Origin: a virus
Length of the DNA: 64,000 bases
Virus record (IMG/VR): IMGVR_UViG_3300034683_000192
Span: 1-64,000 of that record
Strand: one strand, 5' to 3'
Part shown: positions 1 to 16,753 of the stretch, piece by piece
How the letters are laid out: every line of letters begins with the position of its first letter
Numbering within the stretch: position 1 is the first letter of the stretch
Made by a program: the position numbers and the translations under genes
The notes under the pieces: generated by a model
What the model saw: the letters and a program-made list of their open reading frames with translations, nothing else
Databases searched by the model: none
What the model was told of the DNA's origin: nothing

Positions 1-1541
1 TCTGGGTGAGTGTGGCTCACTTCACCATAAGACTCCACATAAAGCCAGCTCGGATGATACTTATGCTCCGGACTGGTCATGTGGTTGGTATTCTTCGACT
101 TCTTCCCACCACCAGTATTCGAGGCGCTATGCGTAGCACGCATTTTTCTGCCACCGACCGTGATGAGCCAGTTGTCGTGATACCGTGCAGGGTTGATTGC
201 AACGACCGCACCGTTCGATCCCATTTGAGTGAATGATCTCGGAGGAATCTTAAACAGCGCTTCGATATCCTGCACACGAGTACGTCTGCTCTTCTTATTG
301 CTATTCGTGTAACTGTAGATTTTGGTGAACAGCTTACGAACCACATTACCGAAGATCAGATCGAGCACATTGGCTCTCTTGTGAAACAAGTTCGATGGAG
401 TATGGTTCACTACGTAGGTGTCCATGTTCATGAATACGTAATCCATGAGATCCATCACGTCATCGCACTTGATCCCCTCTTCCGCAAGTTTGTGTCGCGT
501 ATGGGGATCGATGTAAGTCTTGAGGCTTTCTTGATGTTGCTCCGTGTATCCACACGCAAGCGATTCATTTCCGTACGATATCCCGTAAATTGCTCGACCA
601 AGAATGACTTTCCAAACGACGAAATCGTCAGCACTCTTTAGTCTCGGGATAAGATCGGCATTATCCGTATACATGGTATTCGGACAACGCACGAAATATT
701 GCATGACGTAATGGAGAGATGCTATCACTCTGGACGACAGACGTGACTGATTCTCCACTGTAGTTTCTAGGAGCGACCCGTGCACTTTCATGTACAGACC
801 AGGCGAGTTCCCTTCGCGCTTTCTGATCATGAAGTACTCGTGTTCAATATCTTCTTTGTTCCACGCATCCACAAAGTCGACAGCACCACGATCGATGCCA
901 TATCGCTCAAGTGTTGCGTCTAGTCCATACTGCGCTAGAGGATAGAGCAGCAGCGCAGGACGGATATCTTCTGGTGTGTAGTTGTGTTTGTGCATATGTG
1001 CATGCACTTGGATGATTTGATCAGAGAATCTTTTCCCAGTACAACTGAGAAATTGATGACGAATGCTTCGACAGAACCGCAAATGTGCTCGCAGAACTTT
1101 GATACCCAGTCCGTTGTCTTTTTCGATGTGGTAGAACACCCGGTCAGTCAGAGCAAACTGGATGTAATACTTCGAGCCATTGATGATGATGGCGTTGTCT
1201 TTGAGATACGGAAGATAGAGTAGGATCTTGAACGGGTTTCCGTTGTAATCAAACTCAAATTCCACAGGCATGAGTTCCGAAACTGCTATGTCCACAGTAG
1301 GAGCTTGCCGTGGTTTCGTGATGGCGACTTCGAGTCGCTCTTCCGGGGAAAGAATCCTGCTTCGTCGAAATTTTACCTGACCACCAAAGAGTCTGGTGGC
1401 TTCGACATACGCCATCTCCATGAACTTGATGCAGCCTGCAACCTGGTTCTGGCGATATTGTTTCAGCAGAAACTCATTCGGTGGAGGCAACGCATTTGCG
1501 CATGCATCCAATACGTCATCTTCCGGAGTTCTCTCAAGCAT
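1..1541 (-). CDS. Phage multisubunit RNA polymerase beta-subunit N-terminal part (non-virion RNAP, phiKZ gp123-like); runs off the window edge
   Basis: Missing from the ORF track because it has no stop in the window. Manual translation from ATG 1541 (SD GGAG) is open to position 1: MLERTPEDDVLDACAN...LYLPYLKDNAIIINGSKYYIQ...YHPSWLYVES. The YLPY..NG.KY segment resembles beta N-terminal regions. Confidence 0.6.
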   Translation of the reverse strand, partial: MLERTPEDDVLDACANALPPPNEFLLKQYRQNQVAGCIKFMEMAYVEATRLFGGQVKFRRSRILSPEERLEVAITKPRQAPTVDIAVSELMPVEFEFDYNGNPFKILLYLPYLKDNAIIINGSKYYIQFALTDRVFYHIEKDNGLGIKVLRAHLRFCRSIRHQFLSCTGKRFSDQIIQVHAHMHKHNYTPEDIRPALLLYPLAQYGLDATLERYGIDRGAVDFVDAWNKEDIEHEYFMIRKREGNSPGLYMKVHGSLLETTVENQSRLSSRVIASLHYVMQYFVRCPNTMYTDNADLIPRLKSADDFVVWKVILGRAIYGISYGNESLACGYTEQHQESLKTYIDPHTRHKLAEEGIKCDDVMDLMDYVFMNMDTYVVNHTPSNLFHKRANVLDLIFGNVVRKLFTKIYSYTNSNKKSRRTRVQDIEALFKIPPRSFTQMGSNGAVVAINPARYHDNWLITVGGRKMRATHSASNTGGGKKSKNTNHMTSPEHKYHPSWLYVESYGEVSHTHP

Positions 1542-1550
1542 TTCGTCTCC

Positions 1551-2831
1551 CTACCACCAACTAAACAAAGAAGAGATTCCATCTACGATGGCACCTCCTA
1601 TGGACTTCGCTGCAGATACAAGATACTTTCCTGCCGCAACGACGGCCACTCCGATACCTACGGCTACAGCCACTCCACCCAATGTAGGAGAAGATGAAAC
1701 TGCACTTACTGCTGCTGAGGCCTTAGCCGCATAGGCCATGATTCCGAACATCGCTGGAAGGATGACTGCCATCGCTTTTACTGAAGTACTCATAGCTGCT
1801 ACATCTGAAGACGCCGCGGCTACTCGTTCCTTCTCCAGCTTAATGTTTTCTGTATCTCTCTTAACCAGTTCTGATCGTCTAGCATTTTCACGCTGACGTT
1901 CATTTTCTTCAGATTGAATCTGCGCATTGACTTGAGTCTGCAAAGCTGCATGTACTGCCTGCAAAGAATTCAGTTGATACTTAAGTTCATCTATCTCAAC
2001 TTTCTGTCTCGAGATGATGTTCTTGTATTCTTCTGTTTTCTGTTCACAGAATTTTTCCATGGTTGCTTTACTGACCATCTTGTCATTATCGACTTTCGTC
2101 GAAAGAAGATGTGCAGAAATTTCGTTCCTATTCGATGAGATTACGATAGTCTTACCCTGATACTCGACGGTCTGCTTTGCCGTCGCGACTTCATTCGTGT
2201 CGAGGGTGATTACGTCGTATTCGCCGTACTCGTTGAGGATGCGAATATCACACGAGCAAGGACGAGAAGTATCGTTACTAACAATACCCATGAACATACA
2301 GTCACCGTAGGAGAAGAAGAGTTTATTCATTCGTCCGTACGGGTCATTGAAGACGCACATAATGGGGGCGGTGTTAAGTGCATCTATCTCAGCGGCTACG
2401 CATTCGCGCAACCGCTGTTCGAGTGATTGTCTGGTATGCGGATGATTGGTTCTTGCAAATTCTTCTTTTGTGGAGAAAAGAAGCGATACTGCTGGGATGA
2501 ACCATCCCGGGGAGCGATCGAGTTGACTTTCTGTGATTTCGATTTCATAGACCTCAAAGGTCTTATCAGCAACTTCATGACCAAGAGCATCGAACTTTCG
2601 TTCGGTACCATGATACGCACGCAGTTGCACAACGAGAACGCTTCTTCCACTACGACCGACGCAACGAGGTTTGATTACCTCGACGCTTCCAGTCGCTGCA
2701 GACATATAGATATCCTTGGTCGTATAATTAAATACGGCCATCTCCTGAAATAGGGATGCATTCCTGTTCTTGTACAGCGGAGAATGTTGCTGAGTTTTCT
2801 TCGGAATTGCACTTACGGGGTGGCGATGCAT
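1551..2831 (-). CDS. Conserved jumbo-phage hypothetical protein with coiled coil and C-terminal hydrophobic segments
   Basis: Long ORF with a Q/E/R-rich coiled coil followed by a hydrophobic Ala/Val/Gly tail. Start is ambiguous (2855 TTG, 2831 ATG, 2741 ATG). Confidence 0.75.
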   Translation of the reverse strand: MHRHPVSAIPKKTQQHSPLYKNRNASLFQEMAVFNYTTKDIYMSAATGSVEVIKPRCVGRSGRSVLVVQLRAYHGTERKFDALGHEVADKTFEVYEIEITESQLDRSPGWFIPAVSLLFSTKEEFARTNHPHTRQSLEQRLRECVAAEIDALNTAPIMCVFNDPYGRMNKLFFSYGDCMFMGIVSNDTSRPCSCDIRILNEYGEYDVITLDTNEVATAKQTVEYQGKTIVISSNRNEISAHLLSTKVDNDKMVSKATMEKFCEQKTEEYKNIISRQKVEIDELKYQLNSLQAVHAALQTQVNAQIQSEENERQRENARRSELVKRDTENIKLEKERVAAASSDVAAMSTSVKAMAVILPAMFGIMAYAAKASAAVSAVSSSPTLGGVAVAVGIGVAVVAAGKYLVSAAKSIGGAIVDGISSLFSWW

Positions 2832-2974
2832 ACTCCATCCTACGTGCTCTGCCAATGGCTATCGGCATACGTTTCTCCTTTGTGGTGACTATTGACCGCC
2901 AAATGAGGTTAATGAAGCTTCGGGTATAATGACGCTTAAATCCCAATAGCAAATCCGTAAGGCTTATCTGAAAT

Positions 2975-2982
2975 GTAATATA
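2975..2982 (-). promoter_or_regulatory. Early promoter motif TATATTAC
   Basis: Exact reverse complement (GTAATATA) in an intergenic AT-rich tract upstream of a minus-strand gene; matches the phiKZ early consensus. Confidence 0.7.
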
Positions 2983-2995
2983 TACTTAAAGCTAA

Positions 2996-3027
2996 GATGG
3001 AAGGATGGGTTTCCCCATCCCTCCATC
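2996..3027. terminator. Intergenic stem-loop, putative terminator
   Basis: GATGGAAGGATGGG-tttc-CCCATCCCTCCATC just after the stop of 3039..4397. Confidence 0.65.
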
Positions 3028-3038
3028 TGAATTTTCCA

Positions 3039-4397
3039 TTATCCAAAAAGACTCAAGAGCTTGACACCGATGTTCGAAGTATCCGAGCCTATTGAGTCAT
3101 CTGCAAATTTTTTGTTATTCGCAGATATTGCACTAATGTGTCTGGCATCGTAAGTATCATCCGGACCGTATTCATCCTGGAACAGACTCTTACGGGTCAT
3201 TCCATTGTTGCTAAGATAAGTGTCGAACTCATCTCCATCGTTATCGTAATCCATATTTGCAGCAGTAGTTCTTCCGAGATATCTCGGATTGTACGTACCG
3301 TTCCTTCCAGTCATACGCTGAGTTGCGTTTACTGTATATGGATCTCCTCGATATGCGCCAAGCTTTGATCCTGTATATGCGATATTACCAGATCGTTGAT
3401 CGTAGTATTTATCACAGTTAGCTATTTGATCAAGAAGCTTTGCGCATCCAGATTCAGATGCGGATCTCAACAAAAGATCATACGCATCTTTGCTTGCACC
3501 AAATTCACTATAGTTTCCATCGACATTTGAACAGAGAGCTCGTGCATCCCTGTACAAACCATCGATGGTCTTGAAATCTGCATCTTTACCGGAGAACCCC
3601 TTAATGGGTCTTCCATCTGATCCGACTGCTTCAGGATAGTATTCACCCATCCCAAGAAGATCGGATACACCTTTTCCGACGTTATAAACCGCACTGGCTT
3701 TGCCAGTAACCATCTGAGTACGTACAGCTAACTGACCAGAAGTTCTACCTACTATACCACCCACAGTCGAACGAACGTTCGGTGGAAGCATATCTAGGTT
3801 ATCTTGAGTCAGTTGATTCATTTTTTGCGGACTCGACAAAGTCGAGACAGTATCAATTGTTTTTGTCCCGAGACTTTTTGCTCCAGACAAAAGAGTACCA
3901 TCTTCACTTTTGAGACCATCTTCAGCAGGACCTATATAGGTCCCATTCATCTTCTGAACATCTCCAAACCAATTGTACGTACTATCCTTGGTAGGAGATT
4001 CTTCTCCAGTGACACTCTTAAGCTTAGCCATTTCCGCACTGGAAAAGGCTTTTACATCAATGGATTTCTCCACTGCTGCTAACTCAGGGTTGTCAATGGA
4101 TTTTTGATCTGTAGATGTGACAAATGAAACTTGGGGTTTAAATGCAGCAAACTTCTGTTGACCAGTTACCCCTTGTTGTGTCGTCGTGTACGATGCATCA
4201 GCTCCTGCAGATTTTGCAGAGACTTCGGACGCAGTACCGCCCAGAGTTTGATCTTTTGCACTCGATCCAGTAAATTCCTGTGAAGTACTTCCGAGTTTAT
4301 TCCCTATATCCAGTGGTGAATTATTCAGCAGGTCTGTCGGAGAAGTCTTACTTCTCATTGACGTGGTAATTTGCTGAAGCAGACTATCAAGACCCAT
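3039..4397 (-). CDS. Hypothetical protein, Ser/Thr/Gly-rich N-terminus, possibly virion-associated
   Basis: 452-aa ORF abutting the upstream RNAP gene; no recognised motif. Confidence 0.75.
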   Translation of the reverse strand: MGLDSLLQQITTSMRSKTSPTDLLNNSPLDIGNKLGSTSQEFTGSSAKDQTLGGTASEVSAKSAGADASYTTTQQGVTGQQKFAAFKPQVSFVTSTDQKSIDNPELAAVEKSIDVKAFSSAEMAKLKSVTGEESPTKDSTYNWFGDVQKMNGTYIGPAEDGLKSEDGTLLSGAKSLGTKTIDTVSTLSSPQKMNQLTQDNLDMLPPNVRSTVGGIVGRTSGQLAVRTQMVTGKASAVYNVGKGVSDLLGMGEYYPEAVGSDGRPIKGFSGKDADFKTIDGLYRDARALCSNVDGNYSEFGASKDAYDLLLRSASESGCAKLLDQIANCDKYYDQRSGNIAYTGSKLGAYRGDPYTVNATQRMTGRNGTYNPRYLGRTTAANMDYDNDGDEFDTYLSNNGMTRKSLFQDEYGPDDTYDARHISAISANNKKFADDSIGSDTSNIGVKLLSLFG

Positions 4398-5072
4398 TTA
4401 GAGTCCCTCCACCAGATTGTTATCGAGGAACATGCATCTCAAGATAACACCCATCACTACAGCACTACGGGGTACTGATGACGGATCAAGAGAACCGAGA
4501 ATAGCTTCTCCGTTGTCTTCGAGTTGCTGTTTGAATGACGCAAAACTGTGCACGTCACCACCACGAACTTTCACGAATTCCAGAAGTGTCTTATCGAGGC
4601 CACGTGCACCGAGAAGTTGTGTCTCGACAAATGAAATCGATGATGCCTGGTCAGGTTTCGTAACTTGGCCAGTGAGCGCATCAATCTTCTTGTCACTTTC
4701 TGCGACAGAAAGTTTGTGCATGAGAAATTGTCTAGCACGACGTACAGGAAGTCGTAATACGAGATATTCGTGTCTCGTCATGTATGGTTTTCCTGTAGAT
4801 TCATCGACCATACGAAGTCGTTCGAATAGTTTGAGCTTGAGATGATCTGCAGCCGCAAGAAGATCTTTGTTCTTAAGGAATACCTTGAGATTTGGTGCAT
4901 ATATGACAAGCTTCACTTTCTTTGCTTTAAGCTGTTTCATGTACGCATCAAATTGCGCATCACTCATGTCAGAAAAAAATTTTTCGTATCGCTTATTGTT
5001 GAATCCGCTAGGATCCATAAGCTTGATAGTTTTCAAGATATGGTCTGTAGCAAGTGTACGTGCTTTGTTCAT
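4398..5072 (-). CDS. RNA polymerase beta-subunit C-terminal fragment (virion RNAP, phiKZ gp149-like)
   Basis: TGQVT...ISFVETQLLGARGLDKTLLEFVKVRGGD aligns to the beta C-terminal [32 protein letters not shown] region; SD GGAG present. Confidence 0.7.
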   Translation of the reverse strand: MNKARTLATDHILKTIKLMDPSGFNNKRYEKFFSDMSDAQFDAYMKQLKAKKVKLVIYAPNLKVFLKNKDLLAAADHLKLKLFERLRMVDESTGKPYMTRHEYLVLRLPVRRARQFLMHKLSVAESDKKIDALTGQVTKPDQASSISFVETQLLGARGLDKTLLEFVKVRGGDVHSFASFKQQLEDNGEAILGSLDPSSVPRSAVVMGVILRCMFLDNNLVEGL

Positions 5073-5151: not shown

Positions 5152-7359
5152 CTAAAGAACAATGGCAGTCCCGAGATCGTAGTCTCTCGACATCTTGCGT
5201 CCGAGCTTTATCACGACATTTGTTTTATCACCGATAACTTTGGAAATGTTTTCGATGACGACAAACTTGTAACTTCCGGTCGACCATTTAGGAAGATTCA
5301 GAAGCCACTGCGTTTTTGCTCGAAGAGGTACTATTCCGAGAAACTCAGTTCTCTCCATGAGCGACATTGGGATCTTTTTGGTATCTGCATTGATGAGACT
5401 CACGTTGAGTGAGGTTTCATCGAGCTTGTTCATGTGAAACAGAACGCAATCCCCAATTTGTGCAGGGATAACGTACGACAAATCGGATCTTGTACCACGT
5501 TTACCGGATCCTCTACGCTGAACAAGATCACGATAAGTCATTCGGTCTACTGTACCATCCGAGAAGATACCAGTGAACTTATCCCCAACGATCATTCCTA
5601 CACCATCTTTGGGAAGAACAATTTCATTGGCAATGCTGGCATTTTCGTCAGTTATGCACACAGTAAACACTTTCGAGTTCACCGGAAGTTCGAGAACTCT
5701 TTCTCCTCGAAAGATTCTAGGAAGAACAGTATCACGTGTCTTGCTTACACTACCATTCGCCACATACGTCCGAGGATGCAGCTTGTCTGGATCAAGATAC
5801 ATGTGAACCTGAGAATCAGGAAAATTCTTCAGAATGGTTTTGCATTCGTCGATAGATTCGAACTGATGAATGTCCTTTTCCTTGATACACACGTACCCCA
5901 TGTAAGGGTCGATTCTGGTTCTCCTTGGTCTACGGTACTTCTTTCTGAAGTATTCGATATCCCGGAAAATGACAGATTCGGTATCCTGGTGAGAATTCTT
6001 CAACTGAACTGCTTTGAGTTCCGCAGCTTCAATTTCATCCTGAATCGCTGCACGTGTTTGTACGTTACCGGCAATGATCGGAGTATTGGCGAGAATTTTT
6101 GATTGCATCTGGGACAAATCGAATGTATCCATGAGAGTAGAGATAATTCCCTCATATCCAAGAGAACGATCTCTGACAATTCGCTGTACTTCTTCCCACC
6201 TGTCCGCGACAAGAAGTTTTGTTCTACGTTCGATGATTTGTTGTGTCAGAGCAATTTGGTCATACCGGATACCGGAAATGACAGATTCTCTTCTGATCTT
6301 GTACCAGAGATCGATCAGTCTTTGTGGTGACAGCATTGCAAGACCACCATTTCTTGCGACGAACATGGGACGTTCACGCATCACTTTGGTGAGTTCCAAT
6401 TCTCTGGCAAGCCGATACGCCACATCGAAAATGTCTGCGGTACGTTTGATCGTGATGCTAAGCGCACCTTCTGTATCAGTACTACTCAAGTTCTCGTATC
6501 CTGTTACGAGATCATAGAGCCAACTCTTCTTGTCTTTGAGCATGCTGATCAGTCGATCAGTTACTCTCGGGAATGGTCGACAAAATGGAGATGTACGAAT
6601 GACCATAGTGGTAGGGGTAAGATCATACCTTCCTTCCACAGTCATCGGGGGAGAATGCTTACCTTTCCGATATTCCGCTACCACCTGTTCAGCATCTCGA
6701 ATGGTATTCATGATGGGGAAATCTGGAAGTAGCAGCTGTGCGTATTTTTCGATCTCGAATGGTTTTCCTTGGGATTTGGCATCAAGAAACTTCTCGACTA
6801 AGATGCACACATTTTCGAGGTTTCTGGGAAATGATTCAGTTTTGAAACCAGTTCCGAGTGTATGCGAATAAAGAATGAGAGACATCGGCAATCTCGGAAT
6901 GAGATGTACCGGTTCAATACCCATGAAGTTTTCAGTTTCTCGCACAGGAATCGTCTTGAGGTTGACTCCTTCGAAATATACATCTTTGGCAAATGCACCA
7001 AGTTTCACCTTAAGGTATCTCGGAGCACCTGCATCATCAGAGTCGTAGCTACCAGCATTTCCATGCCCATCAAGAAGAGCCATCCCGATGGAATAGTCCT
7101 GCATGGAACGAATGCATGCATCAGTGATGCTCTTATCGCCGACTGGATGATTTTCGAGTACTTTACCATAGAACTGGCTAAGTACCGTATATGTGAGCTG
7201 ATCTCTGGCGGCCCACAAGATTCGACGATACCCTGCTTTGAGTCCATCGATGTATGACGCGACTTTGTCTGCGGCAACTGCGATACCGAAATCAGTCATG
7301 GTTTCAATGATGATGTTTTCGGCGGTATAGTCTTTGCTTTGAAAATCCAAGTCAGACAT
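5152..7359 (-). CDS. gyrA: Type IIA topoisomerase subunit A (GyrA/ParC-like)
   Basis: DGLKAGYRRILWA, HPVGD, LLDGHGNAGS, catalytic APRY (Tyr115), RRTRI at the end of the N-terminal domain, and a C-terminal domain containing QRRGSGK. Confidence 0.9.
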   Translation of the reverse strand: MSDLDFQSKDYTAENIIIETMTDFGIAVAADKVASYIDGLKAGYRRILWAARDQLTYTVLSQFYGKVLENHPVGDKSITDACIRSMQDYSIGMALLDGHGNAGSYDSDDAGAPRYLKVKLGAFAKDVYFEGVNLKTIPVRETENFMGIEPVHLIPRLPMSLILYSHTLGTGFKTESFPRNLENVCILVEKFLDAKSQGKPFEIEKYAQLLLPDFPIMNTIRDAEQVVAEYRKGKHSPPMTVEGRYDLTPTTMVIRTSPFCRPFPRVTDRLISMLKDKKSWLYDLVTGYENLSSTDTEGALSITIKRTADIFDVAYRLARELELTKVMRERPMFVARNGGLAMLSPQRLIDLWYKIRRESVISGIRYDQIALTQQIIERRTKLLVADRWEEVQRIVRDRSLGYEGIISTLMDTFDLSQMQSKILANTPIIAGNVQTRAAIQDEIEAAELKAVQLKNSHQDTESVIFRDIEYFRKKYRRPRRTRIDPYMGYVCIKEKDIHQFESIDECKTILKNFPDSQVHMYLDPDKLHPRTYVANGSVSKTRDTVLPRIFRGERVLELPVNSKVFTVCITDENASIANEIVLPKDGVGMIVGDKFTGIFSDGTVDRMTYRDLVQRRGSGKRGTRSDLSYVIPAQIGDCVLFHMNKLDETSLNVSLINADTKKIPMSLMERTEFLGIVPLRAKTQWLLNLPKWSTGSYKFVVIENISKVIGDKTNVVIKLGRKMSRDYDLGTAIVL

Positions 7360-7459
7360 TCTCTTCCTCCAGTGTCGAAGAGCTAAATTTCATTCGGTAT
7401 AACATACTTGCTATATATACTAGAAAACACCAATTCTGTGGATGGTTCCAGCACATATA

Positions 7460-8180
7460 ACAAGTAAGGATTCCTCCTTGTGGAGGAACCCTCACGACTT
7501 CGAAAAAAGAATGCAGCATAAAGGTTCAGGTTGGAGAGGCATCGCTCTTTCGAGTCGAGAGGCCTCTCCTTACCTGTCTACCTTTTGGTCCCACACCTGG
7601 CACTTCTCGGTATTGTTTCTTCGTCAATTAATTCTTCCGGTTGAGCAAAAGATTGTCGCCAATAAAGCAACAATCCCATTTCCGAGCCTTTCCGGAAATC
7701 GACAAAGATCAAGGAACCTCCATGTCAATCAGCTGTGGTTTAGACCGGAAAAGTTCGACAGAACTTCTCCCTACTGCGAACCTTGTGGCGATGCTCGACA
7801 TCTGCTCCCTATGTTGTTGATTAGACGGATGGTAAGGCCGCCGGTTTGTGGGAGTATAACCACTACAGTCCGTTGATATGTTGGCTCGGGTATCCGGGCA
7901 AATACCCGAGCCGAATTCGAGTCATGTAGCGCTCTGCGGATGAGCTTGACTCGAGTGTGGACAAAAGATGCGGAGACCTCTAAGCCAGGATCACCGTGGT
8001 GCTGCCGAGGGGAGAGGCTGCTAGGAGGTCCTATGTCGCTTGTACCTGAGATCTCCGCATTACATAAGGGATGCGTATTAGTTATTACACACCACACATG
8101 TTTAGATTTGGTGGGATTCCTCAAAGAAGAATCAGTCCAACTGTCTGGACCTAATGGTTTTACCACCATCAACCAAAATG
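7460..8180 (-). ncRNA. Candidate large structured non-coding RNA, family unidentified
   Basis: About 820 bp without a credible CDS and at least 10 inverted-repeat helices, some nested. Strand is inferred from flanking genes, a GAAA tetraloop and several G-U pairs; some helices favour the plus strand. Confidence 0.45.
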
Positions 8181-8184
8181 GAAT

Positions 8185-8745
8185 TTATTGACTGATACGA
8201 GAATCCTCACTCTCCACAATGAAGGGGCGAATGTTTGGATCCTCGATAGTATCTGCATCATCGTGATCGATGAATTTGATTGCGTCGCTGTACTTGTAGG
8301 TGGTTTCTTCACCTGTCTCAGGATCTCGCAAAGTGAATGCAATATCCGTGATATGGAAATTGAGAGCTGCAATTACCTGCTCGAATGCAGATATCGTAAC
8401 TTTCGTTTTTCTGATGGTCTTCAGATTGTTGTGCATAGGAGTACTCACTGCACGAGGATGCCAGCCTTGTTTTGCGTAATATCGATTGTATCGCTCTTTG
8501 AGCTCTTCTTCCGTGATACCCTTATCAACGAAGATCATTCTGATCAATTTCGCGATAGGATTGATTACTGTAGCGATGTCTTCTGGATAGAAGATCGGTT
8601 TTCCTGTCGCTACTTTCGTAATTGGAGCATTTACCTTATTTTCGAACTTATTGGCAGACGCAGCAAACATGGCTGCAAATCTAGCTCTGTCCGAAAGTTT
8701 CGGAGTAGCCTCTTCGTGAACCAAATCTTGATCCGTGGTTTCCAT
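8185..8745 (-). CDS. Hypothetical protein, possible HTH-like DNA-binding protein
   Basis: 186 aa; GITEEEL...KVTISAFEQVIAALNF is reminiscent of XRE-type helices. Confidence 0.7.
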   Translation of the reverse strand: METTDQDLVHEEATPKLSDRARFAAMFAASANKFENKVNAPITKVATGKPIFYPEDIATVINPIAKLIRMIFVDKGITEEELKERYNRYYAKQGWHPRAVSTPMHNNLKTIRKTKVTISAFEQVIAALNFHITDIAFTLRDPETGEETTYKYSDAIKFIDHDDADTIEDPNIRPFIVESEDSRISQ

Positions 8746-8806
8746 CGATTACCTCTGACAGGTAATGAGCCTGGAGAATCCCGAAATCCTCCAGGCCCAG
8801 GGTACA

Positions 8807-11329
8807 TTACGATTCCAGTAGGCCAAGTTCTTCAAGGATCATCTTGCGAGTGGTTGAGTCGTCGCCAAGCATATCTATGATCTTGTCGGCGTCGCCAAGA
8901 CTCGTGATCCGGTGAAGCTGTCTCGTGGTCGGATCAGTGCAGGTAAGTTCAAGTACCTCTTTGGTCATACCACCGAGCCCCTTGTTACGGGAAGTCAGCA
9001 GTCGCTTATTGAGATTCTCGAATATCTGATAGAGCTGCACAATTGTCAGTTTGGTAGACTTCATGCTATCTGTCATTTTGGTCGTAGCACGAATCTCCAG
9101 ATCCTTCCACCGCAGATTGAACAGGATAGGCATAAGCTCTTCGTAAAGAGCATCGACGACTCCTTCCAGAGAGAATGAGATGTCCTTAGGACCATCGGAA
9201 AGAGTCAGGATGTTCAGACGTTCGTCGTAGCGCGTACCACGACCAAATACGTCAGAGAGCGTATACTTATCCACCCGGCCAGGCTGGATGAATTTTGTCA
9301 GATAGGTAAGCTTCTCAAGAATGATCTCCGGAATACCTAGGCGACGAGAGAGTTCATCGTAGATTTCTCCGATGGATACGACGATTTGGCAAAACTCGTA
9401 GAAATGCTCATCGTCGAGAACTGACGCCGACTTGATAATCTCAGAAAGTTTCGATTCTTTGGAGACCCCGATGGAGATGCTGAGTACTGGAGAGTACAAG
9501 CACTTGATACGGAAGCTCGTAAGTTCCCGCTTGGATCGGATGAACAGCTTTCGCTTATCGCGATCATCGAAAGTCACTTCGTACAATGGAGGGTTCGCGA
9601 TGTATACCATCCCTGTCGTAATGATGAGTGGATTGATCTGGTAAAGTGCACCAATGTGCAATGCCCGGATATGTCCACCATCAATATCGGCATCCTGACA
9701 CAGGATAATTTTCCCATATCTTGCCGTGGACAAATCAGTCTGTCCAGGCCGAATGCCGATGATTTCGATGAGTTCTTTGTACGCAGGAAAGCTATTGATT
9801 CTGGTCAAAGGATCTCTTCGCCCGGCAGACGTCTTTGTAACGTTGATCGGTACACCCTTGATCATGAACACAGCCTGAAATGCAGCATCTCTTGCCATAC
9901 GCAAGTGGTCGGCAGACACACCTTCGACGATGAAGAGTTCTGCGTCTGCACGATTTGACGTACTGCATTCGTAGAACTTTTCGATGTTGATCGATTGTCT
10001 ACGCTGGTCTTTCTTGGAGATGGGCTTGTTGAAGTACTCACAATACTTACCAACGATGTCGTCGGCCAGATGATTGTACAGTTCAAGCCACATGGTTTCT
10101 CCGGAGAATTCGAATGCTTTTTCAAGCATCGCGATATACCGGCGTTCGAATGCCGCTTGCTTGAATCCGTCTTTGGCAAGACCAGTGAACCTGATGTTAC
10201 CATATTTGACGGATAGCGCAGCACAGAGAGGAATGCGATAGATGTCAACGAAGAACTTCTTGTGGTCAGGATCTTCGATGTATCCTGCAAGCTTCATCTT
10301 GAGTGCTGTGAGAAGACCCACGATGTGAGATGACGTCATGTCACGCATCGGAATGTTGTTCACGATGGAGGTAACGTGAGTCCCACGATAGATCTTGGGA
10401 AGGTACAGATTGATGTCGAAACTGAGCTGGACCTTCTCTTCCCATGTTTCTCCTCTGGCAGGATCAGAGAGAGTCATCGTTTCGTATTCGAGTTCTGGGA
10501 ATGGACCACTTGAGATGTGTTTGAATTCCCAGATAAACGAAGTATCGGTGACTTCCCACATTTCACGCAGGTTAGCCATGACAGTATCATTGTCCTCACC
10601 ATCAGCAAGAACGATAGCTTTGTCACGATACTCCGTATCGATGAACTTAAGCGCCTCATGCGCGTTCATTGTCCAGAAGTAATCCGGAATGCTTTCATAT
10701 ACCGCACGGCAGACGATGTGCGTGTTTTGGCTGAACATCCCAATGAGCAAAGCTCGCTTTACGAGTTGTTCATAGTGAACTTCAGTGAATGTATCGACAT
10801 CAGTGAAGAACTTTTCTCTCGGACACATCGCGACCATGGTACCCGTCATGTCGTCGGGATAATCATCGATGGACGAGGATATGAGATCCCCACGATGGAA
10901 GACAAGATGCCCGATCTTGTTTTCACGCTTTGTGATGACTTTGAAATTTTCAGAGAGAACCATGGCAACTTTGCCACCGATACCATTCAGACCACCCGAA
11001 GTCTGATACGCATTCTTGGTGTATTTGCCAGAGGTCTTGAGGCTGGTAAATGATTGTTCGAGTTTCCCGAGAGGTACTCCTCGACCATTGTCACTGATGA
11101 TGACCTGCCACGTGTTCTTGCGCTTGTCAAGAAACAGCAGAATGTCAATGGAACCACCTGGACGGATTTCAGTTTCGTCGATGGAGTTGTCGAAAATTTC
11201 ATTGACACAGTGCATCTGACCTTCATGGTCAATCGTCCGGATATGGTTCTCCGGACGAAGCAGAATCCAGTCTTTGTCTGACAGATTCTGAATGTCGTCG
11301 TCACCGTAACTCAATTCGATTTCGCTCAC
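8807..11329 (-). CDS. gyrB: Type IIA topoisomerase subunit B (GyrB/ParE-like)
   Basis: GHKL ATPase motifs EIFDNSIDE, DNGRGVP and GGLNGIG; TOPRIM motifs IVEGVSA and DADIDGGHI; GTG start with SD GGAGG. Confidence 0.92.
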   Translation of the reverse strand: MSEIELSYGDDDIQNLSDKDWILLRPENHIRTIDHEGQMHCVNEIFDNSIDETEIRPGGSIDILLFLDKRKNTWQVIISDNGRGVPLGKLEQSFTSLKTSGKYTKNAYQTSGGLNGIGGKVAMVLSENFKVITKRENKIGHLVFHRGDLISSSIDDYPDDMTGTMVAMCPREKFFTDVDTFTEVHYEQLVKRALLIGMFSQNTHIVCRAVYESIPDYFWTMNAHEALKFIDTEYRDKAIVLADGEDNDTVMANLREMWEVTDTSFIWEFKHISSGPFPELEYETMTLSDPARGETWEEKVQLSFDINLYLPKIYRGTHVTSIVNNIPMRDMTSSHIVGLLTALKMKLAGYIEDPDHKKFFVDIYRIPLCAALSVKYGNIRFTGLAKDGFKQAAFERRYIAMLEKAFEFSGETMWLELYNHLADDIVGKYCEYFNKPISKKDQRRQSINIEKFYECSTSNRADAELFIVEGVSADHLRMARDAAFQAVFMIKGVPINVTKTSAGRRDPLTRINSFPAYKELIEIIGIRPGQTDLSTARYGKIILCQDADIDGGHIRALHIGALYQINPLIITTGMVYIANPPLYEVTFDDRDKRKLFIRSKRELTSFRIKCLYSPVLSISIGVSKESKLSEIIKSASVLDDEHFYEFCQIVVSIGEIYDELSRRLGIPEIILEKLTYLTKFIQPGRVDKYTLSDVFGRGTRYDERLNILTLSDGPKDISFSLEGVVDALYEELMPILFNLRWKDLEIRATTKMTDSMKSTKLTIVQLYQIFENLNKRLLTSRNKGLGGMTKEVLELTCTDPTTRQLHRITSLGDADKIIDMLGDDSTTRKMILEELGLLES

Positions 11330-15890: not shown

Positions 15891-16340
15891 TCATTTTGAG
15901 CTATCTTTCTTTCGTATGTAACTGGTCAACTCGTTGAGCTCTGGATGATGCTCATCTCTGAGTATCCAAAGCAATCTTGGGAGAGGGCATGCCAACTGAA
16001 CGAAGGCCGAAAATACCGGACTCGCGATCAGTTTATTCAGGGGTCGTGTATTTTCAGTAGACTTCTTAAACCAGTAGATCGTACTCGATATAGTAGCCAC
16101 GATCATTCGGTCATCCTCGTCGTACGAAAAATATCTGACCTGATTTTCTGGAATACGTTCTCCAGAGATGGTGTCATTCGCGTCTTTATGTAATTCGACC
16201 ACGAATGCAGTCACCTGTTCCGAAGATTGGTTTGTCACTGGATCGAATATCGACTCAGTCACAATGCTCAATACGTGGTCATCGCCCGCTTCTACCCACT
16301 TGATTGGCGAGTCTTCAGGGAATGATTTGGTATAGTCCAT
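15891..16340 (-). CDS. Hypothetical protein
   Basis: Start refined to MDYTKSF (SD AAGGA). Confidence 0.7.
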   Translation of the reverse strand: MDYTKSFPEDSPIKWVEAGDDHVLSIVTESIFDPVTNQSSEQVTAFVVELHKDANDTISGERIPENQVRYFSYDEDDRMIVATISSTIYWFKKSTENTRPLNKLIASPVFSAFVQLACPLPRLLWILRDEHHPELNELTSYIRKKDSSK

Positions 16341-16357
16341 GGAATTTGTTTCCTTTT

Positions 16358-16753
16358 CTATTGGATTGCGTGAGCATCGCACTTGACGGTGGCGTGGCCA
16401 GGTGTACGCTTATGATCAGGAACGCACGCCATTTCGATGTCTTCCCAGTTGGCGAACTTCACCACGCGAACAGCAGCAGTTCCCTTGAACAGGGCTTTGA
16501 TGAGCGCCATCTCACCACCGAGGACGTAGCCGTTCGGGTCGATGAGGATCTTCCCGCGCAGATCTTCGCTCATGACGGTACGCATGAACTTTGCCGCGGT
16601 ATTGACCGTCAGGGCTTCGGTGATGATCTTGTTGAAATTCTTATTGAAGACACGAACAGGGACACGTTTCGAAACGATCCCACTTGCGATCTTGTGAAGC
16701 CGGTACATGGAGTAGGGCTGACCATCGGACGCGATGATGACGGACTTGGACAT
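16358..16753 (-). CDS. Degenerate ParB/sulfiredoxin-like domain protein
   Basis: DLRGKILIDPNGYVLGGEMALIKALFKG follows the D-L-x-x-P-I-I...G-x-V-x-D-G-x-H-R-x-x-K-A pattern but lacks DGxHR; SD AAGGAG; C-ending codon bias. Confidence 0.5.
   Translation of the reverse strand: MSKSVIIASDGQPYSMYRLHKIASGIVSKRVPVRVFNKNFNKIITEALTVNTAAKFMRTVMSEDLRGKILIDPNGYVLGGEMALIKALFKGTAAVRVVKFANWEDIEMACVPDHKRTPGHATVKCDAHAIQ

Follow-up and report, generated by a model that had tools for sequence, protein, structure and literature searches.

The window analysed here is a stretch of DNA of 64,000 nucleotides (nt), namely the first 64 kb of the IMG/VR virus record IMGVR_UViG_3300034683_000192, which has 199,880 bases and is estimated to be 73% complete. 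Split RNA-polymerase genes, a promoter-like octamer and palindromic hairpins at gene ends mark its source, an uncultured phage, as a putative phiKZ-like jumbo phage. In this window, a gyrB-like gene, a small conserved gene for a protein of 186 residues (open reading frame ORF186) and a gyrA-like gene follow one another on the minus strand, which carries every gene around them, and ORF186 and gyrA are separated by a gap of 825 nt free of ORFs (Table 1). The genes for RNA-polymerase subunits adjoin this gyrase cluster; those for the beta subunits are split, and ORF224 among them corresponds to PHROG 3233. The gap is rich in predicted helices. Its 3′ part holds a module of about 310 nt, two hairpins of which, P1 and P3, are conserved with covariation in the nearest other phage; its 5′ part, including a multi-helix domain that we call domain A, has no counterpart there.

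Table 1. Features of the gyrase cluster and of the gap between ORF186 and gyrA (window coordinates)
Feature	Position	Strand	Basis or remark
TATATTAC promoter motif	11410-11403	minus	upstream of gyrB
gyrB-like gene	11329-8807	minus	Pfam HATPase_c, Toprim, DNA_gyraseB_C
ORF186 (186 aa)	8745-8185	minus	small conserved gene after gyrB; gap begins at its stop
ORF-free gap, 825 nt	8184-7360	minus	between ORF186 stop and gyrA start
Domain A, multi-helix, 332 nt	8174-7843 (RNA 11-342)	minus	minimum-free-energy (MFE) fold; closed by predicted long-range pairs
Inner hairpins of domain A	8133-8115, 8101-8062, 8060-7968, 7954-7917, 7912-7883	minus	MFE fold, pair probabilities
P1, 10-bp hairpin, GGAGAAGUUC-UGUC-GAACUUUUCC	7770-7747	minus	pair probability 1.00
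P2, irregular long arm, 160 nt	7746-7587	minus	helices with pair probability 0.92-0.99
P3, terminator-like hairpin with a GAAA cap and a GGAGAGGC/GCCUCUCC core	7585-7520	minus	MFE helix, high pair probability
Single-stranded motif UUAUGCUGCAU (UUAUGYUGCAU in L002)	7521-7511	minus	local alignment
Terminator hairpin, 14 bp, loop ACAA, then U-rich tail	7495-7464	minus	terminator scan; MFE pair probability 0.90
18-bp hairpin upstream of gyrA	7463-7408	minus	overlaps degenerate promoter-like TATATAGC (7417-7410) and GTATGTTATA
gyrA-like gene	7359-5152	minus	Pfam DNA_topoisoIV, 1.6e-44

Of about 15 billion proteins, few are related to the GyrA of this phage. One contig (L126) is 100% identical to the window, and one strain (L016) is 98.79% identical, with 112 substitutions and no insertion or deletion. 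The nearest other phage is L002 (genome G001), which is complete with 220,982 bp and has a GyrA 56% identical to that of the window, and the remaining phages are more distant, at 53% GyrA identity and below. A GyrA-guided search for further related loci gave none, and a search with the ORF186 alignment gave three more distant phages, all three with protein genes between the ORF186 orthologue and gyrA.

By sequence, the window gap can be aligned to that of L002 in its 3′ end only: RNA positions 606-787 align with positions 281-446 of the L002 gap at a score of 66, compared with 25±3.4 for shuffles. Judged from this comparison, the conserved unit is P1-P2-P3-motif-terminator, at 7777-7464, and the order P1-P2-P3 is kept in spite of the distance between the two phages. 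A counterpart of P1 lies at 5700-5723 of L002, with the same flanks, the same YGYC loop and the G-U pair kept, and at three inner pairs in a row both partners differ, so that pairing is preserved. This counterpart was spotted by eye and then by a covariance model derived only from the window, for which it is the best non-self match in 342 kb (E 0.084, or roughly 1e-4 when rescaled, by our own scaling, to the 467-nt syntenic gap). In IMG/VR the P1 motif is found at the L002 site only; 596 Gb of prokaryote genomes gave 96 chance matches; the inner triplets are complementary in only five of these, and P3 follows in none. The place of P2 in L002 is also occupied by a long irregular arm, of 79 nt. 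In P3, the GGAGAGG/CCUCUCC core and the GAAA loop are kept in L002, where a different apical stem takes the place of that in the window; compensatory changes are seen at two pairs. Scans of IMG/VR and JGI for the P3 motif found the L002 record plus one chance match inside a bacterial regulator gene, and this is also the outcome for the single-stranded motif. L002 has its own terminator hairpin at the position equivalent to that of the window, and a GTATnnTATA element before gyrA is common to the window, L002 and the more distant phage L004. P1 and P3 are conserved with covariation, the compensatory pairs being five between two distinct sequences, too few for statistics. This conservation agrees with one of the proposals of the initial annotation, which had been made from the sequence alone, that the gap might be a structured regulatory element: the 3′ ~310 nt with conservation at the RNA level and compensatory changes would fit it.

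Comparison of the window with the strain L016 gives a second view on the same division of the gap. The gap differs by eight substitutions in 825 nt, all of which are transitions and compatible with the predicted fold; all four that fall in confident helices keep pairing through G-U. P2 has two substitutions, at 7624 and 7622, neither of which breaks a pair: A-U becomes G-U at the first, and G-U becomes A-U at the second. A raw comparison with four-fold sites (52/1110) gives p about 1e-6. Divergence from L016 is unevenly distributed, with two hot patches, at 6100-6900 and 10400-11260, and long stretches of zero; for example, 32 substitutions in 800 nt of gyrA are followed by none for 740 nt (6881-7621). 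The pattern resembles a mosaic produced by recombination among strains that co-circulate. The tests given here use the four-fold sites outside the hot patches, where 23 of 866 (2.66%) are substituted. By this measure the whole gap is under-diverged (8/825, p=0.011), and the 3′ part with its flanks, RNA 346-825, diverges about six times slower than the four-fold sites (2/480, p=0.0025), while RNA 1-345, corresponding to domain A, is not distinguishable from them (6/345, p=0.41). Thus, constraint is detectable only where L002 is also conserved. In this alignment, divergence in other short spacers between genes is 4.6-5%.

Domain A begins 11 nt past the stop of ORF186 and folds well, with a z-score of -6.6. 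Against the complete L002 genome, the gap gives only 14-17-nt chance words, with no counterpart of the 5′ ~400 nt that include domain A, and the 5′ 600 nt do not score above shuffles against the gaps of L002, L004 and L010 by word-chain and local alignment. Furthermore, the gap has no blastn match in INPHARED and matches only itself in its own genome, and two patterns derived from domain A have zero matches in IMG/VR. A MITE-like insertion (miniature inverted-repeat transposable element) does not fit domain A, whose ends pair imperfectly, with no flanking duplication seen, and which is single-copy in its own genome and absent elsewhere. Most likely, as far as these comparisons indicate, domain A is a lineage-specific extension, a recent acquisition or a fast-evolving spacer rather than the core of an ornate RNA. 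The single non-coding RNA (ncRNA) of ~700 nt put forward in the initial annotation finds no support at this point: the 5′ ~400 nt are absent from the nearest relative, and their divergence is not distinguishable from that of four-fold sites.

The helices themselves are real complementarities. The minus-strand gap folds at -312.6 kcal/mol with a z-score of -9.26 and none of 20 dinucleotide shuffles as good, and the plus strand at -273.9 with a z-score of -4.29; among the 263 predicted minus-strand pairs 31 are G-U. Because the minus strand folds better than the plus strand and contains these G-U pairs, the structure of the gap is a property of the RNA in sense orientation. The helices listed in the initial annotation are all present in the sequence, and most of them appear in the minus-strand MFE fold with high pair probability, mostly 0.9-1.0 (those at 7585-7520, 7677-7649, 7770-7747, 7912-7883, 7954-7917 and 8060-7968), while ATTTCCG/CGGAAAT, although complementary, is unused, and the three-way junction drawn at 8109-8168 is replaced by long-range pairs with a probability of about 0.7. 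The folding energy, which was to be compared with dinucleotide shuffles, is indeed far better than theirs, with coding controls also negative: coding segments of 825 nt have z-scores of -3.2 to -4.6, and minus-strand windows of 400 nt across 15 kb have a mean of about -2.8. The gap has the most negative z-score among all 825-nt segments tested, against this strongly negative background, and z-scores from few shuffles are noisy. The mRNAs of this phage share such folding far below the shuffles, so little can be decided from energy by itself.

No known RNA family was recognised in the gap, as the initial annotation had noted for tRNA, tmRNA, RNase P and group II landmarks. Rfam 15 cmscan gave no match at E<=1 for 6000-10000 and none at gathering score for the whole window, and the gap alone gave at most hairpin-level noise (E 2.6-9.2). 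Covariance models of GOLLD, ROOL, OLE, HEARO, raiA, RNase P and 6S have no match in the gap, and neither group I and group II introns nor any ribozyme family were recognised there with Rfam. ARAGORN found no tRNA or transfer-messenger RNA (tmRNA) in the window; those of the phage, a tmRNA and four tRNAs, lie at 100.1-101.3 kb of the record. This RNA island, on the minus strand at 100102-101278, consists of tRNA-Ser, the tmRNA (131 bits), tRNA-Arg, tRNA-Pro and tRNA-Gly. An intron reading was rejected, as gyrB ends with its C-terminal domain, the N-terminus of gyrA is intact, and ORF186 is free-standing in relatives without the gap.

Promoter and terminator signals of this phage follow a clear grammar. 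The octamer TATATTAC, which we take to be the early-promoter motif of phiKZ, occurs seven times in the window (2975-60651) where 0.7 copies are expected, and the genome has 19 copies, every one intergenic and on the minus strand. In most cases a long palindromic hairpin, rich in GC, ends a few bases before the octamer, and a ribosome-binding site follows 30-60 nt after it; the motif together with such a preceding hairpin constitutes a clean promoter/terminator grammar for the phage. About 65 palindromic hairpins are found at gene ends in the genome, many with GGAGAG/CUCUCC arms and directly upstream of TATATTAC. This class of terminator hairpins was defined as GC-rich, 10-16 bp long, with a loop of 3-8 nt, at a gene end, and often with GGAGAG/CUCUCC arms before a promoter motif; P3 (7585-7520) and the hairpin 7495-7464 both belong to it, and ordinary spacers of the genome contain one such hairpin in about 100-200 nt. 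The arm type of P3 is that of many of these gene-end hairpins, and hairpin 7912-7883 in domain A is also of the common type. P3 and 7495-7464 look, by sequence, like ordinary terminators of the phage, contrary to the initial statement that the nested multi-helix domains of the gap differ from the simple terminators elsewhere. In the gyrase cluster, the copy of TATATTAC upstream of gyrB is the only one, a motif scan finding none between 11403 and gyrA, and it is likely, judging from the motif, the start of a transcript running into the gap. The TATATAGC element before gyrA has two mismatches to TATATTAC, and gyrA has no good TATATTAC promoter in this phage. With this sole upstream motif and with domain A so close to the ORF186 stop, the co-transcription with gyrB and ORF186 that had been suggested is plausible.

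The place between ORF186 and gyrA is, from the comparison of gene orders, a hypervariable slot in this phage group. Orthologues of ORF186, 28-37% identical, are found in L002, L005, L007, L010 and L013, and the gene, a core gene that always comes after gyrB in this phage group, is kept there with or without a folded spacer. The slot holds three to six unrelated small protein genes in L005, L007, L010 and L013, and gyrA starts 16-18 nt after the preceding ORF in L005 and L007. Besides its small genes L010 has 412 nt of ORF-free, non-homologous DNA, and L002 has 467 nt of such DNA. In L004, the slot holds six tRNAs, a tmRNA and an ORF similar to HNH endonucleases, followed by 593 nt of ORF-free DNA after this ORF. 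The latter locus (GyrA 53% identical) has its tRNAs, tmRNA (3912-4321, 134 bits) and HNH-like ORF at 300-4900, directly upstream of gyrA, and no gyrB is detectable in its 10.4 kb, so that an RNA-gene island stands in place of gyrB and ORF186. As for ORF186 itself, it has no Pfam or PHROG match, and its predicted structure has no Foldseek match. The AlphaFold model has a helical core (residues 50-162) with a predicted confidence (pLDDT) of about 88, for which only weak structural neighbours of the XRE/helix-turn-helix (HTH) type were found (Z 3-5); the label "HTH-like" given to this ORF is still a guess.

We favour, with about an even chance of its being correct, the reading that the gap consists of a structured termination-processing module of the 3′ untranslated region (UTR), or intercistronic region, in its 3′ part, and of a lineage-specific extension in its 5′ part. 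Transcription would start at the gyrB promoter and pass through the gap, which would be the 3′ UTR, or the intercistronic region, belonging to gyrB-ORF186. P1-P2-P3 and the terminator may form and protect the 3′ end of this transcript, and the module may tune transcriptional read-through into gyrA by 3′-end formation, processing or attenuation. Probably, a stable structured RNA derived from the 3′ UTR is left, as in phiKZ, and the 5′ part (8174-7843) would be a private extension of the same UTR. Transcription of the gap, termination or processing within it, and a regulatory effect on gyrA are what we infer from the sequence. Several points weigh against this. The distinct homologous sequences are only two, that of the window and L016 and that of L002, with the five covarying pairs, and shuffles gave 67/500. 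The arms of P2 (160 versus 79 nt) cannot be aligned, a module of 310 nt is long if it is to be just a terminator, and for P1-P2 no part in termination is apparent. No antiterminator that could pair as an alternative was seen in the module. The low divergence could come partly from the patchy recombination, as the stretch 6881-7621 has no substitution, coding sequence included. Finally, domain A folds well by its z-score, and its four changes in L016 fit the fold, two more lying just 5′ of it, so that a functional RNA in this domain is conceivable.

Other explanations account for part of these data. The gap could give one large (~700 nt) and ornate ncRNA of a new class, similar in kind to GOLLD or ROOL, released from the gyrB-ORF186 transcript and acting in trans, with domains A and B co-folded. 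The extreme z-score of the whole gap, the nested helices of high probability with two multi-branch domains predicted, the eight transitions all compatible with the fold and the under-divergence of the gap as a whole all speak for such an RNA; it is nevertheless unlikely, because the nearest relative, whose genome is complete, lacks domain A, which also shows no constraint, and searches of IMG/VR, JGI metagenomes, 185,579 prokaryote genomes, INPHARED and Rfam gave no homologue. There is a single GNRA loop and no pseudoknot or tertiary motif was seen, no promoter motif lies in front of the RNA, and mRNAs of the phage, too, have folding energies well below those of shuffles. A version in which 8184-7464 is one ornate RNA of ~720 nt, with P1-P2-P3 as the conserved core and domain A as a fast-evolving periphery, for example a scaffold or decoy during infection, seems rather improbable to us. 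Alternatively, the gap could be mostly functionless spacer, a hypervariable slot with ordinary terminator hairpins and leftover or imported DNA. The varying content of the slot (small genes, tRNAs with tmRNA and HNH, or non-homologous ORF-free DNA), the near-neutral evolution of domain A and the common type of P3, the terminator and hairpin 7912-7883 speak in this direction. So does a 10-nt direct repeat, GUGAGGRUUC, which brackets the gap. On the other hand, the order P1-P2-P3 and compensatory changes are kept at 56% GyrA identity, the 3′ 480 nt are far slower than four-fold sites and other short intergenic spacers are not, and no trace of a pseudogene is found, which makes spacer alone a doubtful explanation. 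The repeat itself lies at 8201-8211, in the end of ORF186, and at 7486-7495, in the 5′ arm of the terminator, and could be a coincidence or an insertion scar. Long-range pairing of the ORF186 end with the terminator, or the flanking direct repeat as a feature, is not found in L002 and hence was treated as incidental.

A function at the DNA level and a protein-coding function can be weighed in the same manner. The position between the gyrase genes and beside the genes of RNA-polymerase subunits, together with several inverted repeats in the gap, could suggest a DNA element with cruciform-prone repeats, such as a replication origin, a strong gyrase site or a recombination hotspot. Folding is strand-asymmetric with many G-U pairs, however, and the substitutions preserve pairing at the RNA level only. 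Moreover, the gap contains no iterons or tandem repeats, and the GC skew has no extremum at 7-8 kb, its extrema being at 100 kb and 148 kb; the origin mentioned in the initial annotation finds no footing here, and we regard a DNA element as very improbable. Hardly credible is an unrecognised protein gene, either ORF133 (minus, 8172-7771) or ORF144 (plus, 7442-7876), the longest ORFs of the gap. Both are open in the window, L016 and L126 and both were gene-called on a public contig nearly identical to the window, and ORF133 covers domain A almost exactly. Neither has homologues, however, in a word search of 5.8 billion clusters or in exhaustive HMMER searches, whose matches are the ORFs themselves and two tandem-repeat artefacts, and neither has a Pfam or PHROG match. 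Their codon-usage scores are -0.23 and -0.06, compared with 0.28±0.095 for 133-codon pieces of real genes, more than three standard deviations below. ORF133 would start at TTG and lacks a Shine-Dalgarno sequence, and two of its four substitutions in L016 are at second codon positions, while in real genes more than 85% are at third positions; ORF144 is on the plus strand, where no promoter motif occurs. All three types of stop codon are present in all six frames of the gap, by which recoding of stop codons is also rejected, and a tblastn search for remnants of the slot genes of relatives gave none, by which pseudogene remnants of neighbouring genes are rejected as well. The gap is truly non-coding, and the earlier view that it has no credible coding sequence is borne out. 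Of the stretches in the 200-kb record that lack coding-type codon usage it is one of the four longest, without being the longest of all.

The closest published analogue of the module, by analogy of layout, would be the RNA from the 3′ UTR of PHIKZ298 in phiKZ. In this phage, a ncRNA of ~100 nt is processed from the 3′ UTR and consists of a pair of stem-loops, with the terminator as the second (PMC8545117, Grad-seq). The gap has the layout of a 3′-UTR-derived ncRNA, with P3 and the terminator as two stem-loops of about 120 nt on the sense strand downstream of ORF186, and the host of both RNAs is a phiKZ-like jumbo phage. They differ in that there is no sequence relationship, that the conserved unit is about three times longer because of P1 and P2 and is preceded by ~400 nt of private folded sequence, and that it is known from sequence alone. 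In 201phi2-1, only small RNAs (<250 nt) associated with UTRs were found (PMC11512511). There are larger phage-borne RNAs for comparison. GOLLD (RF01998) and ROOL (RF03087) share with the gap the size class of 600-800 nt, many predicted helices and a function that is not known. Unlike them, the gap has no covariance-model match at E<=10, is not beside tRNAs (the island being at 100 kb) and is unconserved over half its length even in the nearest relative, with no demonstrable pseudoknots or conserved junctions. The terminator-promoter grammar of the phage itself is another likeness, as P3 and 7495-7464 share the GGAGAG.../...CUCUCC arms and sit before a promoter-like motif and a gene; unlike the ordinary case, four to five hairpins and long arms extend over 825 nt and the promoter motif is the degenerate one. 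The order of a conserved multi-helix unit, a terminator, a ribosome-binding site and gyrA is also that of riboswitch or attenuator leaders. Unlike these, the gap has no match to a riboswitch family and no identifiable antiterminator, there is no ligand logic for a gyrase gene, and the length of the P2 arm differs two-fold between the window phage and L002.

RNA biology of jumbo phages with their own RNA polymerases is poorly known, and the only RNAs so far described for phiKZ and 201phi2-1 are small ones derived from UTRs. A conserved, covarying hairpin module in the gyrase operon would be a concrete candidate for an element of transcript ending, processing or attenuation in these phages. The GyrA and GyrB subunits are needed in equal amounts, and the module sits between their genes. 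With regard to the search for such elements, helix counts and z-scores alone overstate candidates in helix-rich gaps; half of this gap is without conservation or constraint.

Strongly folding segments are found elsewhere in this genome as well. A conserved coding segment inside ORF452 (3100-3924, minus strand) has a z-score of -6.8 with 20 shuffles, the lowest among the coding controls. The segment 15504-16303, marked as non-coding by a crude codon filter, has a z-score of -6.9 and comprises a plausible gene for 163 residues (15891-16382, minus strand) and a spacer of ~380 nt with two strong hairpins. At 118506-119282 of the genome, 777 nt without coding-type codon usage have a z-score of about -10, a noisy value from just 12 shuffles.

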